A stretch of DNA of 35,391 bases. It comes from a virus. Taxonomy: Duplodnaviria; Heunggongvirae; Uroviricota; Caudoviricetes. The translations under genes were made by a program, and so were the position numbers. The notes beneath the pieces are model-generated. The model was not told where the DNA came from, did not search any database, and saw only the letters and a program-made list of their open reading frames with translations. The DNA lies in IMG/VR virus record IMGVR_UViG_2778261298_000003, one strand, 5' to 3'. Shown one piece after another: positions 1 to 6,620 of the stretch (positions are counted from its first letter, which is position 1; each line of letters starts with the position of its first letter).

Positions 1-1284
1 TTACAGACTTCTGGAAGGTTGCGCAGCTCTTACAACACGCGGTTGATCTTCCGCGGCGTCTTCCAGCGCACTTAAATCACGGTCTTTCACTTCTGGCATT
101 TTCAGCGCAGAGATTAAACCAATCACTGAATATGCCATGATCATAATGGCGATCGGATACCAGGATTCCGTCATGGTGCAGAAAATACCCGCCAGGATAG
201 GACCAAAACCGGAAGCGATAAGACCACCAATTTCTTTAGAAATAGCCATCCGGGTAAAGCGGTTTTTACAGCCGAACATTTCTGCCATGGTAATATTTTC
301 CAGAGCAAATAATCCCAGCACCGCACAGTTATGAATCACAATCAGTGCAACCATAATGGTGCTCGGGGCATAGCTTTTATCTACGATGATAGAAAGCATT
401 GGCCATGCCAGCACAATCGCGGAGGTATTCATAATAATATACGGGATCCGGCGACCAATTTTATCGGATAACCAACCAAGGAACGGAATGGTCATAAAGC
501 CGAGAATCGAACTGATCATCAATGCATCTGTTGGAATTGCTTTGTTAAACAATAACGTCTGCACTAAATAGCCCGCAAGGAAAGTCTGAATTAAACCTGA
601 GTTACCCGCCTGACCAAAACGCAGCCCTGTTGCCAGCCAGAAGGATTTGCTCTGGAACATGCTACCAGCAGGTGCAGGTTTTGCTGTCGGTTGGTTGCTG
701 TCGTTAACCTTCTCAAAAACCGGGCTTTCTTTCAGATTCATACGCAACCAGATAGCAAAGACCATCACGACAACGCTCGCCAGGAACGGTATACGCCATC
801 CCCACGCCAGCAGTTCCTCTTTACTGAGAATGAAGAACATAAAGGCCCAGATTGCCGTTGCGCTTAAAGTTCCGCAGTTAGTTCCCATAGCCACAAATGA
901 GGAGATAATTCCGCGCTTACCTTTTGGCGCATATTCCGCCAGCATCGTACCGGCACCGGAAATTTCCGCACCTGCACCCAATCCCTGAATAATACGCAGC
1001 GTCACCAGCAAGATGGGGGCAAAAACACCAATCTGTGCATAGGTCGGTAACACACCAATTAAGGTGGTACAGATCCCCATCATGGTGATGGTAATAAAGA
1101 GCACTTTTTTACGCCCTATTCTGTCGCCCATTTTGCCGAAAATAAATGCTCCGACAATACGCGCCACATAACCTGCACCGTAGGTTCCCATTGCCAGAAT
1201 TAACGCCATTGCCGTTGATGATTCAGGAAAAAATATTTCATGAAACACTAACGCTGCGCCGAGCGAATATAACTGGAAATCCAT
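1..1284 (-). CDS. ydfJ: MFS-family transporter (YdfJ-like), probably N-terminally truncated at the prophage junction
   Basis: 427-aa multi-helix hydrophobic protein with the MFS loop motif G-x-x-x-D-R-x-G-R-K (GKMGDRIGRKK) at residues ~50-60, earlier than in full-length family members; ATG at 1282-1284. Confidence 0.8.
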   Translation of the reverse strand: MDFQLYSLGAALVFHEIFFPESSTAMALILAMGTYGAGYVARIVGAFIFGKMGDRIGRKKVLFITITMMGICTTLIGVLPTYAQIGVFAPILLVTLRIIQGLGAGAEISGAGTMLAEYAPKGKRGIISSFVAMGTNCGTLSATAIWAFMFFILSKEELLAWGWRIPFLASVVVMVFAIWLRMNLKESPVFEKVNDSNQPTAKPAPAGSMFQSKSFWLATGLRFGQAGNSGLIQTFLAGYLVQTLLFNKAIPTDALMISSILGFMTIPFLGWLSDKIGRRIPYIIMNTSAIVLAWPMLSIIVDKSYAPSTIMVALIVIHNCAVLGLFALENITMAEMFGCKNRFTRMAISKEIGGLIASGFGPILAGIFCTMTESWYPIAIMIMAYSVIGLISALKMPEVKDRDLSALEDAAEDQPRVVRAAQPSRSL

Positions 1285-2303: not shown

Positions 2304-2619
2304 TATAATAAACTTACTTTTTTATCATTTTTCCACTTTAACAACATTTTGCTCCACTTTTCCACGATCAAACAACTTGAAATCTGGTTAAAATAACACG
2401 CAACACTATTCTTCTTCCTTGAGTCCGCCCGGAACTCGAAAAACAAACCGAGTTAAAGCCATTTTTCACAAAATCGATTTTGGGTCTCACCAAAATTACG
2501 GGGTTGCATACGCATTCGTTTATTTTCGAACGTGTACATACAAATATGCACAAAAATAATAAAAATTATTTTCTGAGATGCATTATGATATGAACACCAA
2601 TTTCGTATAGAGTCTCACT

Positions 2620-3210
2620 ATGTCTCGAATTTTTGCTTACTGTCGGATATCAACGCTGGATCAGACCATCGAAAATCAACGCCGGGAAATCGAAAGTGCA
2701 GGTTTTAAAATCAAACCTCAGCAAATAATCGAAGAACACATTAGCGGCTCAGCAGCAACCAGTGAGCGTCCTGGTTTTAACCGGTTGCTTGCTCGCCTGA
2801 AATGTGGTGATCAATTGATTGTGACAAAACTGGATCGCCTTGGTTGTAATGCAATGGATATCAGGAAAACAGTGGAACAACTGACCGAAACAGGTATCAG
2901 AGTGCATTGCTTAGCATTGGGGGGCATTGACCTGACCAGTCCAACAGGAAAAATGATGATGCACGTAATTTCAGCAGTCGCTGAATTTGAACGAGACCTT
3001 TTACTTGAACGCACTCATTCCGGGATAGTAAGAGCCCGCGGCGCAGGGAAACGTTTTGGTCGACCACCTGTGTTAAATGAAGAACAGAAACAGGTGGTAT
3101 TCGAACGAATTAAGTCAGGTGTAAGTATAAGTGCCATTGCCCGGGAATTCAAAACCTCGCGGCAAACCATTTTAAGAGCCAAAGCAAAACTTCAGACACC
3201 TGACATATAA
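2620..3210 (+). CDS. pinQ: Serine recombinase, DNA invertase of the Pin/Gin/Hin/Cin family
   Basis: 196 aa; N-terminal catalytic domain with active-site Ser in the YCRISTLDQ context; C-terminal helix-turn-helix; ATG start verified. Confidence 0.9.
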
Positions 3211-3307
3211 AAAATAATCTCGGTGTGAGATGCTTTACGTCTTCCAAGCCCCCTTCCTTGCCGTAAATGGAAAGATACATCTAATTATAGAATTTATATG
3301 TTTTACC

Positions 3308-3883
3308 CTACGGCAGTGCTGGCCATTCAATATCCTGTGCAGTTGACGTATCAACACGGTTCAGCAACACCCGATACTTTTTCCAGGCTTCCAGCAATGA
3401 GGTTTCTTCCTCCGTTGCGATTTCCAGATCTACAGCATCCTGAAGTGGTGCAATATGCTCACTGGCTACCTGCATCAGGCTGTTTTTTGTTTCTTCCGCC
3501 TCTCGGATCCGGAACAGTTTTTCTGCTTCTGCATCTTTCACCCAGGCTGTGCCGTTCCACTTCTGAAACTCCCCTTCCGGCGATAACCAGGTAACATTTT
3601 CCGGTAACGGACCGAGTTCAGAAATAAATAACGCGTCCCCTGACGCTACGTCATAAACCGTTTTACCCCGATGGTCTTCAACGAGATGCCACGATGCCTT
3701 ATCACTGTTGAAAACAGCCACAAAGCCAGCAGGAATATCTGGTGGTGCAATATCGGTACTGTTTGCTGGCAGACCTGTATGAGGCGGAATATATGCGTCA
3801 CCTTCACCAATAAATTCATTAGTTCCAGCCAGCAGATTATAAATTTTTATGGTCCGTGGTTGTTCACTCATTCTGAATGCCAT
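3308..3883 (-). CDS. tfa: Tail fiber assembly protein (Tfa)
   Basis: 191 aa, lambda Tfa-like ([24 protein letters not shown]...); its ATG overlaps the stf stop. Confidence 0.9.
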
Positions 3884-6582
3884 TATGCAAGCCTCACAAT
3901 ATAGTTAAATGCGATGTTTTTGACGGTGTTTTCCGCGTTACCAGCAGCGTTAACGGTGATGGTGTGTCCATGTGAACCAATCGCAACGGAGTGCGTATGA
4001 GCACCAATACCGACAGTATGCGCGTGTGCACCTGCAGATGCTGCTGTGCCGGACAGTGAATGGCTATGATTACCATCTGTACTGGTATTCGCTAACCACC
4101 CCGTAGACATACCTACTGAGCCTTGTACACCCCAGGTATTTTGACCTGAGCTTGTATAACCATATTGATAAGTATCTTTAAAAACACTGGGGTTAAATCG
4201 ACGGCCATCTCTATGGCTGTGATTACCAGCTGCATTCGTGCTGCCACTTAAACTATGGGTATGCGCACCAGTGTTATTCGTGGATTTAGTGCCGTAATCA
4301 AACGACGATGTGGTTTTCGTCCCCAAATCCGTACTGGATGCGCTGGCGCTGTGGGTATGCGATTTAATGCCGTCCTGTTCCTGAGACAATACGGCCCGAC
4401 CACTGGCAGGTTTGCCCTTAATCGTCCAGCCACGCATATCAGGGATCACGCCTGACGGATAAGCGGCTGCAAGTTTCGGGTATGCAGATTTGTCAAAAGT
4501 CTGCCCCTGCATCAGGGCATAGCCAGACGGAACGGTATCTGATGGCCACGGGATTGGTGCGCCAGGCGGATAAAACTGCTCTGATGGCGTATAGAGTGAA
4601 TAAACTGTACCGTCCGTTAACCCTTCCGGCTTATTAGCAGAATATGCTGGTGACGTATGAATCGTCACGCTGGCATTACTGGTATAATCCCATTGAATAT
4701 TTACACCAGTCGCATAATTTCCGATTGCAACGTAAATATCGTAAGTATCACCAGATGTATTGACCCAGGCAAAATTTGTAAACCCTGTCGATGTGCGCTG
4801 CCATAAAGCACCAGTAATCCCCTTCGGATTACCATTACCTGCACGTAAAACAAGTTCAGATATACCTGCCTGTTGAGGTGACCCCACGTTAAATCCAGCG
4901 CCACCAATCAACGTAATTGAAACAACAGAACTCGCCTGTGGCATGGTTACCGTTGCTAATTTGAACCAACCAGCACCACCGCTGAATGACATTGTTGTTG
5001 AGTTAAGCGTACCAATATCTTTCGGCGTCAGTGTTATATCCGCTGAAAGCGCCTTACCATTCACCTTACGGGCAGAAGGTACCCGACCATTCGCATTGTC
5101 ATTAGCTGCTTTCACTGCTTTCGGTGTCGCAGCAAGCGTTTCAGATGTGCTGTTGGTTGCACTACTGAGCTGGACAATTCCTTTTTGTGCTGTCGTAGCG
5201 TCCTGTGCGGTGTATTTCCCGTTAGCCAGGTCATACGCGGCCTTAACGGCTTTTGGCGTTGCCGCCTGTGACTCGGAAGTGCTGTTAGTCGCACTGCTGA
5301 GCTGAACTATCCCTTTCTGTGCTGTCGTTGCATCCTGTGCGGTGTATTTCCCGTTAGCCAGGTCATACGCGGCCTTAACGGCTTTTGGCGTTGCCGCCTG
5401 TGACTCGGAAGTGCTGTTGGTCGCACTGCTGAGCTGTACTATCCCCTTTTTCGTCGTGCTCGCATCCTCAAGCGCCACGGCGGATGCAATATCCTCTGCC
5501 CGTTTTGCTGCTGTCTCGGCGCGCGTTGCCGCGGATTCCGCCGTACTTTTGCTCTGTGCTGCCGCTGCCGCACTGCCAGCAGCCTCTGTCGCCTTCGTGG
5601 ATGCCGTCGTGGCGCTGCCCCTCGCTGCTGACGCCTGTCTGGTCGCCTCATCTTTTGAAGCAGACGCAGATGATGCAGCCGCTGTTTTTGAGCCTGCCGC
5701 AGCCGAGGCGCTCTGTCCCGCTGCCGTTTCAGAAGACCTGGCGTTCGTCTCGGACGTTTTTGCCGCCTTCGCGGAATTTCCTGCCGCCGTTGCCGAGGAA
5801 GCGGCACTACTGGCGCTTGATGATGCGTTCGTTTCTGATGATTTTGCCGCCTCTTTTGAAGCCGACGCATCCCGTGCTGAAGTGGCTGCTTCTGACGCTT
5901 TCGTAGTCGCGGTGGATGCAGAAGTGGCTGCTGATTGTTGTGACGCTGCCGCATTCGTTTCTGACGTTTTCGCCGCACCGGCACTGGTAGCCGCCGCGCT
6001 TTTTGAGGACTCTGCAGCGGCAGCACTTTTTAATGCTTCAGTGGCCTTTGTTGATGCCGTTCCTGCGCTGGAAGACGCTGACTGAGCCGACGAAGCAGCC
6101 TGTCCGGCTGACGTGCTGGCTGCGCGTGCTGAGCCTGCAGCATCAGTCGCATGGGTTGCCGCCTCACGGGCTGATGTGCTGGCATCGCTGGCTGACTTCT
6201 TCGCGGCTGCCGTGTTCTGTGCCACCGCGGACGCGTTACGCGCCACCTCTTCCACCATCAGTTCAAAACGGCGCAGTGCCTCAGGACGGGCATCATCCTC
6301 CGTCATGGCACCGAGAAAATCATTCAGCGTACCGGGTCGGGAATCTTCATACACGGTGATGGTCCCGGCATGTGACGGCGGGAATCCTTCCACCAACAGA
6401 ATAACGCTGTACTGACCGTACTCAACGTCCATGCTGTAACGCCCGGCTTCATCCGGATTTTCTGAGGCCAGCGTGTTCACCACCACCGTGGTACTGTTAC
6501 GTTTTGCTTTCAGCTGGATTGTGCAGTTCTGTACCGGTTTTCCTGTGCCGTCTTTCAGTACACCTGAAATCTTTACTGCCAT
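3883..6582 (-). CDS. stf: Side tail fiber protein (Stf) with Ala/Ser/Thr-rich shaft, tandem 44-aa repeats and Gly/His-rich C-terminal region
   Basis: ORF-track frame to 6588 begins on GTG; the lambda-like N-terminus [20 protein letters not shown] starts at the ATG at 6580-6582; C-terminus ...[18 protein letters not shown] matches lambda Stf. Confidence 0.9.
5110..5460. repeat. Tandem direct repeat, 132-bp unit, about 2.5 copies, inside stf
   Basis: The string cctgtgcggtgtatttcccgttagccaggtcatacgcggccttaacggcttttggcgttgccgcctgtgactcggaagtgctgtt recurs 132 bp apart (from 5201 and 5333); encodes the repeated [15 protein letters not shown]...[27 protein letters not shown] motif. Confidence 0.75.
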
Positions 6583-6593
6583 ATTCACCCCAC

Positions 6594-6620
6594 AAAAAAG
6601 CCCGCCTGAACCGGCGGGCT
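6594..6620 (-). terminator. Rho-independent terminator-like hairpin between lom and stf
   Basis: GC stem gcccgcc/ggcgggc with a 6-nt loop, followed on the minus strand by a T-run (plus-strand aaaaaa at 6594-6599). Confidence 0.5.

Follow-up and report, generated by a model that had tools for sequence, protein, structure and literature searches.

Genes at the pinQ locus

The window, meaning the whole stretch of 35,391 nucleotides analyzed here, is a lambdoid prophage at the Qin site of E. coli. The order of genes at the locus is ydfJ, ydfK, pinQ, tfa, stf, lom, and J, with pinQ convergent with tfa-stf. The genes and gene features under discussion are as follows:

1-1284, minus strand: ydfJ
2037-2303: ydfK
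2620-3210, plus strand: pinQ, 196 aa, most likely the tnpR of a truncated Tn5403-like Tn3-family transposon
2650-2652: codon of the pinQ nucleophile, Ser11
2845-2847: codon 76 of pinQ, TGT (Cys), in place of the Arg equivalent to R71 of the Tn3 and gamma-delta resolvases
3308-3883, minus strand: tfa, tail-fiber assembly chaperone (Pfam Caudo_TAP, 3.1e-44), the sole copy in the window
3883-6588, minus strand: stf, side tail fiber, 901 aa, with a single C-terminus
about 5005-5478: three tandem Phage_fiber_2 repeats of stf

An earlier note on this DNA had described pinQ as intact and next to tfa-stf. Both statements hold for the reading frame, which is open over 196 codons and whose product matches the Pfam families Resolvase (2.5e-36) and HTH_7 (3.8e-11). 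The active site, on the other hand, is not intact, since codon 76 has replaced a conserved Arg. The window prophage is far more complete than that of K-12, with its 901-aa stf, lom, J, and beyond. The length of stf differs among otherwise similar prophages, from 320 aa (truncated) in K-12 Qin and 901 aa in the window to about 1,120 aa in Rac and phage Turner, and this variation is likely the result of recombination among the Phage_fiber_2 repeats.

Search for an invertible tail-fiber cassette

The Gin/Cin/Pin/Hin systems possess 26-bp crossover sites and a second cassette, unlike the pinQ locus. The whole 35 kb was searched by tblastn with the tfa and stf C-terminus of the window, TfaE, TfaP, and StfP of e14, and S, U, and U' of Mu. 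As the earlier note had reported, there is one tfa and one stf C-terminus, and no fiber-gene fragment was detected in the window with any of these fiber and chaperone queries.

Crossover sites were sought with a weight matrix of 11 half-sites, which combined gix, cix, and pix as read from Mu, P1, and e14 with hix. Genuine crossover sites score 19-31 bits with this matrix. The best gix-type score in the window was 8.6 bits, compared to a mean best score of 9.1 bits in shuffled sequences, and scores stayed at the shuffle level throughout. The search of 3211-6600 for gix, cix, hix, and pix sites found none; no position in that interval was among the top 25 of the window, and all scored below 1.1 bits. 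The pix core, TTGGTTTGGGAGAAGG, was absent from the window at up to three mismatches, and a search for inverted repeats between 1900 and 7300 returned pairs at the chance level only. These results agree with the earlier failure to see a convincing pair of inverted crossover sites. They do not favor the idea that the switch may use sites not visible by eye, as neither the gix-type matrix nor the res-type matrix described below yields an above-chance pair. A crude scan for the paired Fis cores of a recombinational enhancer, which in this family lies in the 5' part of the recombinase gene, missed its positive controls, gin, cin, and pinE, and therefore says nothing about pinQ. The top two gix-type matches, which belong to the five best and are within chance, begin at 27321 and 27353; they lie 32 bp apart in the AT-rich intergenic stretch 27321-27378 and read CCCGTAAAAACGAGGTTTATGGATAA and TTATTGAATACATCAGATTAAATTAA.

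One explanation for a lone recombinase gene beside tfa-stf is a decayed Gin-type switch, in which pinQ once flipped an alternative stf C-terminus and tfa in the manner of P1, and the cassette and its sites were later deleted. The layout lends itself to this reading. P1 has the order cin, cixL, Sv' U' U Sv, cixR, with cixL overlapping the 3' end of cin, and the convergent pinQ/tfa/stf arrangement mimics it. In addition, the stf repeats at 5005-5478 share homology with a part of Mu S, residues 107-170, that ends directly at gixL. However, the position in stf homologous to Mu gixL, directly past the repeats, has no crossover site, fiber fragments and gix-type sites are absent across the whole window, and active phages show the same cassette-less layout. 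Further evidence against a decayed switch comes from the ancestry of PinQ and from the DNA flanking its gene, described in the next two sections.

PinQ and the Tn3-family resolvases

Gin, Cin, PinE, and Hin resemble PinQ in that they are small serine recombinases with Resolvase and HTH_7 domains encoded beside tail-fiber genes. Members of the Gin/Cin/Pin/Hin family are about 60-70% identical to one another, whereas PinQ is only 35% identical to Gin, 35% to Cin, and 38% to PinE. Fin belongs to the true Hin/Gin-family invertases, and PinQ does not. PinQ shows 77-84% amino acid identity to four clusters of TnpR proteins (P0015, P0101, P0085, and P0073). Each of these is encoded 159-160 bp from, and divergently to, a 994-aa transposase with DUF4158 and DDE_Tnp_Tn3 domains, and the pairs sampled come from E. 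coli IncF plasmids (512 contigs), Hafnia, Klebsiella, and Shewanella. Relatives of PinQ were present in 1,858 plasmid records. In a neighbor-joining tree with gamma-delta resolvase as the outgroup, the PinQ alleles pair with the E. coli plasmid TnpR as its sister group inside the TnpR clade, and a deep branch of their own unites Gin, Cin, and PinE. The recognition helix gives the same picture: TSRQTILR of PinQ is close to TTRQTILR of the transposon resolvases and unlike the helices of Gin, Cin, and PinE, which also differ from PinQ in having kept the active-site Arg.

PinQ shares with the gamma-delta and Tn3 resolvases the fold and the equivalents of Tyr, Arg, Ser, Arg45, Asp67, and Arg68. It differs from them in overall identity (about 30-35%, 84 bits), in having Cys at the position of R71, and in the apparently non-functional state of res in the window. 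The res sites of its transposon relatives follow the three-subsite logic of gamma-delta, and their half-site, TGTMCGAAA, is close to the TGTCYRTTA type, which is the gamma-delta consensus. By score, the TnpR clade to which PinQ belongs lies somewhat nearer to Gin (106 bits) than to gamma-delta resolvase (84 bits), and invertase-like behavior would therefore be compatible with the sequence.

PinQ of Qin and PinR of Rac in K-12 are the same gene as pinQ of the window, with 98-99% identity, and both K-12 prophages share its flanks, the res and terminal repeat relics, the 98-bp spacer to tfa, and Cys76. One residue sets the window protein apart. It has His115 (2962-2964), where K-12 PinQ, PinR, and all the transposon TnpRs have Gln. 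This column aligns with a His of Gin, Cin, and PinE and corresponds to the position at which the changes Gin H106Y and Hin H107Y give Fis independence. Elsewhere in the clade, Erwinia oleae (L022:1280-2649) carries two divergent, back-to-back genes about 200 bp apart, whose products are 71% and 77% identical to PinQ. A 60%-identical gene of Erwinia phage LS-2018a showed neither fiber genes nor convincing repeats in its context.

Remains of a transposon around pinQ

Alignment of the locus with the transposons that carry the closest TnpR genes revealed the following features around pinQ:

2507-2532, plus strand: res subsite a (presumably crossover site I), a relic with homology left only in its right half (about 2520-2532, TTTTCGAACGT)
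2547-2578, plus strand: res subsite b (accessory site II), decayed, with half-sites TGCACAAAAA and TTTTCTGAGA
2584-2609, plus strand: region of res subsite c, promoter-proximal, with a -10-like hexamer and one strong half-site
3216-3253, plus strand: relic of the right 38-bp terminal inverted repeat, CTCGGTGTGAGATGCTTTACGTCTTCCAAGC(---)CCCC, with its outer end at 3253
3254-3307: 54-bp spacer of phage DNA that separates the outer end of the transposon from the stop codon of tfa and has no crossover site

The reference transposon is an element of 3,815 bp from E. coli IncF plasmids (L030:4823-8637) with perfect 38-bp inverted repeats, GGGGTCCGCTTGGAAAACGGAAAATATCCCACGCTAAG. Window positions 2524-3253 correspond to 3081-3815 of this element, with 82% DNA identity over 730 bp. 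The right end of the alignment is the last base of the right inverted repeat (transposon 3815, window 3253), which is 54 bp from the tfa stop. The repeat relic differs from the transposon by eight substitutions and a 3-bp deletion, and it aligns to both the left and the right inverted repeats of the E. coli and Shewanella transposons; the left repeat also matches window 3206-3249 on the opposite strand. At the left edge, transposon 3081 equals window 2524, within the first res subsite, although at 82% identity this breakpoint is fuzzy by about 10 bp. To the left of 2524, no DNA similarity to the transposon was detected (z about 0). No tnpA relic was found anywhere in the window by tblastn, and blastn found no second, left inverted repeat in the window.

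At a dS of about 0.6, the reference transposon is to be seen as a cousin of the ancestral element rather than as that element. Its TnpR and PinQ are both 196 aa, with 82-84% protein identity and nearly identical recognition helices, and in both cases the gene is flanked by the same promoter-proximal res subsite and 38-bp terminal inverted repeat. Unlike the window, the transposon has a transposase, a left inverted repeat, intact res sites I and II, and the R71-equivalent Arg. We call it Tn5403-like because plasmid papers write "Tn5403-pinR" for the Tn5403 resolvase, auto-annotated as pinR; the name rests on this usage and not on sequence comparison. The Shewanella element has the same inverted repeats as the E. 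coli plasmid element. In one strain of Shewanella baltica (CP002811/CP002813; L045, L046, and L047), there are three identical copies, two chromosomal and one on a plasmid, and a TTTAA target duplication was read at the flanks of the one copy examined, which suggests that this element is currently active.

The four transposons share a conserved res with TGTMCGAAA half-sites and subsites of 26, 32, and about 25 bp. A res matrix was trained on the transposon half-sites (11.8-18.4 bits each), and intact dimer sites score 28-33 bits with it. Subsite a scores 9.1 bits in the window compared to 32.8 when intact. Subsite b, in which both half-sites have lost the CG core, scores 8.3 bits compared to 27.9-29.6 in the transposons. 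The best-preserved parts of res are the promoter-proximal half-site and the hexamer TATGAT (2584-2589), which aligns with TATAAT of the transposons and is probably the -10 hexamer of the promoter. The lone strong surviving half-site, TATACGAAATTG, is on the minus strand at 2598-2609 and scores 14.6 bits. Across the whole window, the res-type matrix found no dimer pair above chance. Judged from these scores, a functional three-subsite res is absent upstream of pinQ and, since the window has neither a gix-type nor a res-type site, PinQ has no substrate in cis. The pinQ coding sequence itself contains a further strong half-site of res type at 2882-2893, TGACCGAAACAG (14.3 bits), which may be shared with the transposons or a chance match. 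The Tn3 and gamma-delta resolvases repress their own promoters via res, and PinQ may similarly repress itself at the remaining res site III.

Most likely, pinQ is the tnpR of a small Tn3-family transposon that inserted by tfa, and there was never a fiber switch here. A transposon with tnpA, res, and tnpR, seemingly Tn5403-like, would have entered an ancestral lambdoid phage at a point shortly downstream of tfa. Its transposase half would then have been lost, with a breakpoint at about the center of res site I, leaving the right 730 bp (2524-3253). Of res, these hold the right half of site I, site II in decayed form, and site III along with the promoter; tnpR and the right inverted repeat follow. 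The position of the breakpoint, at the center of the presumed crossover site, suggests that the loss was mediated by the resolvase. We infer this order of events from the arrangement of the remains. Reconstruction of the insertion event was not possible, as the search gave neither a target-site duplication nor an empty site. In E. coli, tfa genes that lack a pin gene show homology only from about 3317 onward, and the original insertion target was thus not recovered. The tfa gene is a neighbor of the transposon relic and lies outside it.

On this origin, pinQ would sit beside tfa because the transposon inserted there, rather than as the remains of a fiber switch, and since the gene arrived as part of a transposon, the locus most likely never had an alternative cassette or gix-type sites. 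A Tn3-family terminal inverted repeat, and no cix-like site, lies directly past the pinQ stop, and PinQ, with its 35-38% identity to Gin, Cin, and PinE, is nested among transposon resolvases. The sequence of the repeat and res relics already contradicts a decayed switch, and we consider it highly improbable. Therefore, the earlier placement of PinQ in the Pin/Gin/Cin family, with a switch once owned and then decayed, does not survive the low identity to that family, the nesting in the TnpR clade, and the two kinds of relic. In a literature search, we found no paper tying pinQ or pinR to a Tn3-family origin, which does not by itself establish priority.

The origin of pinQ also bears on annotation. 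Both genes universally bear the annotation "DNA invertase from lambdoid prophage", for pinQ as for pinR, and automated annotation spreads the name "pinR" to Tn5403-type resolvases of plasmids. If PinQ is an orphaned resolvase without its catalytic Arg, the absence of a fiber switch beside it would be explained, and host-range switching would no longer be expected in these phages. The locus would also illustrate clearly how a piece of a transposon can become fixed in a phage module that is widely exchanged.

The active site of PinQ

PinQ keeps Tyr7, Arg9, Ser11, Arg50, Asp72, and Arg73. At the position equivalent to D36 it has E39, and Glu is typical of the PinQ clade. The residue aligned to R71 of the Tn3 and gamma-delta resolvases is Cys76, encoded by TGT where the transposon has CGT. 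Arg is the residue found here in 112 of the 120 homologue clusters; Gin, Cin, PinE, and the transposon copies without exception have it as well. In contrast, all 13 full-length prophage and phage copies examined have Cys76, including those of active phages and an 84%-identical allele.

The six most critical residues of Tn3 resolvase are Y6, R8, S10, D36, R68, and R71 (PMC2794168). PinQ lacks the full set, with Cys76 standing in for R71. In Tn3 resolvase, R71A and R71K abolished recombination and slowed cleavage about a thousandfold, although the mutants were described as "not inert" (PMC2794168). By analogy, the Arg-to-Cys change should reduce catalysis by PinQ roughly a thousandfold, and its catalysis is presumably weak.

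Selection on pinQ and distribution of the module

Among transposon copies, dN/dS was 0.03-0.08, and between PinQ and the E. coli transposon copy it was 0.16. Between the two prophage alleles it was about 0.36 (pN 0.078, pS 0.189; Fisher p = 6e-4), which is significantly below 1. Prophage pinQ is under relaxed purifying selection, with protein evolution about 4-5 times faster than in the transposon copies, and the value below 1 rules out simple decay of the protein. Internal stop codons are absent from each of the 13 full-length copies sampled. Two frameshifted pseudogenes were found, in Shigella flexneri (L025:10001-10587) and E. coli ECGI0523 (L026:10001-10583). Both belong to more divergent modules of ydfK, pin, tfa, and stf, in which pin is broken by several frameshifts and stops.

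The pinQ module was present in 2,671 of 5,426 complete E. coli genomes (49%), always collinear. Phages Turner and mEp460_ev081, both active, share the layout and the 98-bp spacer. In only 170 of the 5,426 genomes, a population-level count, was the P segment of K-12 type with pinE collinear at a coverage of at least 80%. Unlike this K-12-type segment, related Gin-type cassettes are common among the E. coli genomes.

These data bear on two possible present roles. The first is that pinQ is a functionless hitch-hiker that spreads solely through its linkage to the exchangeable ydfK, tfa, and stf end. A missing cis substrate, selection about fivefold more relaxed than in the transposon copies, the two pseudogenes, and the behavior of the module as one unit across 2,671 genomes would all fit such a gene. 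However, a dN/dS of 0.36 indicates some constraint, the 13 sampled full-length copies are free of internal stops, and deletion of pinQ in K-12 was reported to raise sensitivity to phage T2 (PMC12529663). We regard a gene without any function as an unlikely reading.

The second is that PinQ has been domesticated into an essentially non-catalytic DNA-binding protein, which represses its own promoter or read-through antisense to tfa, or modulates other serine recombinases as a partner. In favor of such a binder, Cys76 is fixed, and the frame has remained open, in alleles with a 16% difference in protein sequence, dN/dS lies significantly under 1, and it is the promoter-proximal half-site and the -10 hexamer that have been best preserved in res. 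Three points weaken it: R71 mutants of Tn3 resolvase are "not inert" (PMC2794168), only one strong half-site is left for the protein to bind, and the gene has decayed in some lineages. We regard a binder of this kind as quite doubtful.

Published activity of PinQ in trans

The earlier note had listed a decayed switch, sites not visible by eye, and action in trans on another prophage as its options. The lack of a local switch stands, and action in trans has been reported, but the Pin-family premise behind these options is not supported. According to Kirigo et al. (NAR 2025, PMC12529663), the P segment of e14, which is 1,797 bp long, is inverted by K-12 PinQ and also by PinR, a protein 99% identical to it. 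This inversion creates StfE2, which blocks the adsorption of phage T2 (PMC12529663). Overproduction of K-12 PinQ raised inversion of the P segment from about 30% to 88% and protected cells from T2, and protection was abolished by deletion of stfP, stfE, or the whole of e14 (PMC12529663). T2 escape mutants mapped to gp38, and the P segment occurs in both orientations among deposited genomes (PMC12529663). In the BLAST survey of that study, inversions were found only in e14 and none in Qin or Rac (PMC12529663). As precedent for action in trans, on the H segment, the authors cited Fin of the Salmonella prophage Fels-2 (PMC12529663). PinQ was named solely from its 38% identity to PinE (PMC12529663). 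A text search of the paper showed that Tn3 is unmentioned and that "resolvase" appears only in a general introductory sentence and in the title of a reference.

The main role of PinQ could thus be that of a trans-acting invertase, which would act by direct binding and recombination at sites of the gix/pix type carried by other prophages, as in the P segment of e14, and so switch their fiber-like genes; the published StfE2 defense against T2 is this role. The results of Kirigo et al. on inversion, deletions, gp38 escape, and both orientations speak directly for this role, and the window PinQ is 98% identical to that of K-12. Against it, a pinE mutant was locked in the non-inverted state despite the presence of pinQ and pinR (PMC12529663), and a text search of the paper found neither a catalytic-dead control nor an in vitro reaction. 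PinQ also has Cys at the R71-equivalent position and a res-type recognition helix instead of one of the Gin/Cin/PinE type, and pix, gix, and cix score about zero or below on the res half-site matrix. Finally, the K-12-type P segment is far rarer (170 genomes) than the pinQ module (2,671 genomes). The published inversion in trans fits poorly with Cys76, the res-type helix, and the locked pinE mutant, and we think it improbable that inversion in trans is the main role of the protein.

If pinQ originated as a transposon resolvase gene, as we consider most likely, anything that PinQ does in trans, for example, to the e14 P segment, would be no more than a weak, secondary effect. We tentatively raise, as a less probable extension, that PinQ and PinR are a domesticated resolvase made mainly into a non-catalytic DNA binder by the fixed Arg-to-Cys change, with an indirect effect on the orientation of the e14 P segment in place of a genuine invertase reaction. 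Such an effect would arise by biasing PinE, by selection for one orientation, or by very weak residual catalysis upon overexpression. An orphaned resolvase without its catalytic Arg would place a concrete and testable doubt on the mechanism of the published PinQ anti-phage system.

Variants of the module

Two other genomes show rearrangements next to pinQ. In phage Turner, a tfa fragment (L007:3948-4100; residues 132-182, 78% identical) lies about 1.9 kb away across pin, shares its strand with the real tfa, and appears to be left over from a former fiber module of the b region. Escherichia ruysiae (L011:10679-14885) retains pinQ, the inverted repeat relic, and about 100 bp of the 3' end of tfa, whereas a different fiber module, with proteins of 346 and 93 aa and another stf of 800 aa, takes the place of the remaining tfa and of the stf C-terminus, which places a module-exchange breakpoint inside tfa.
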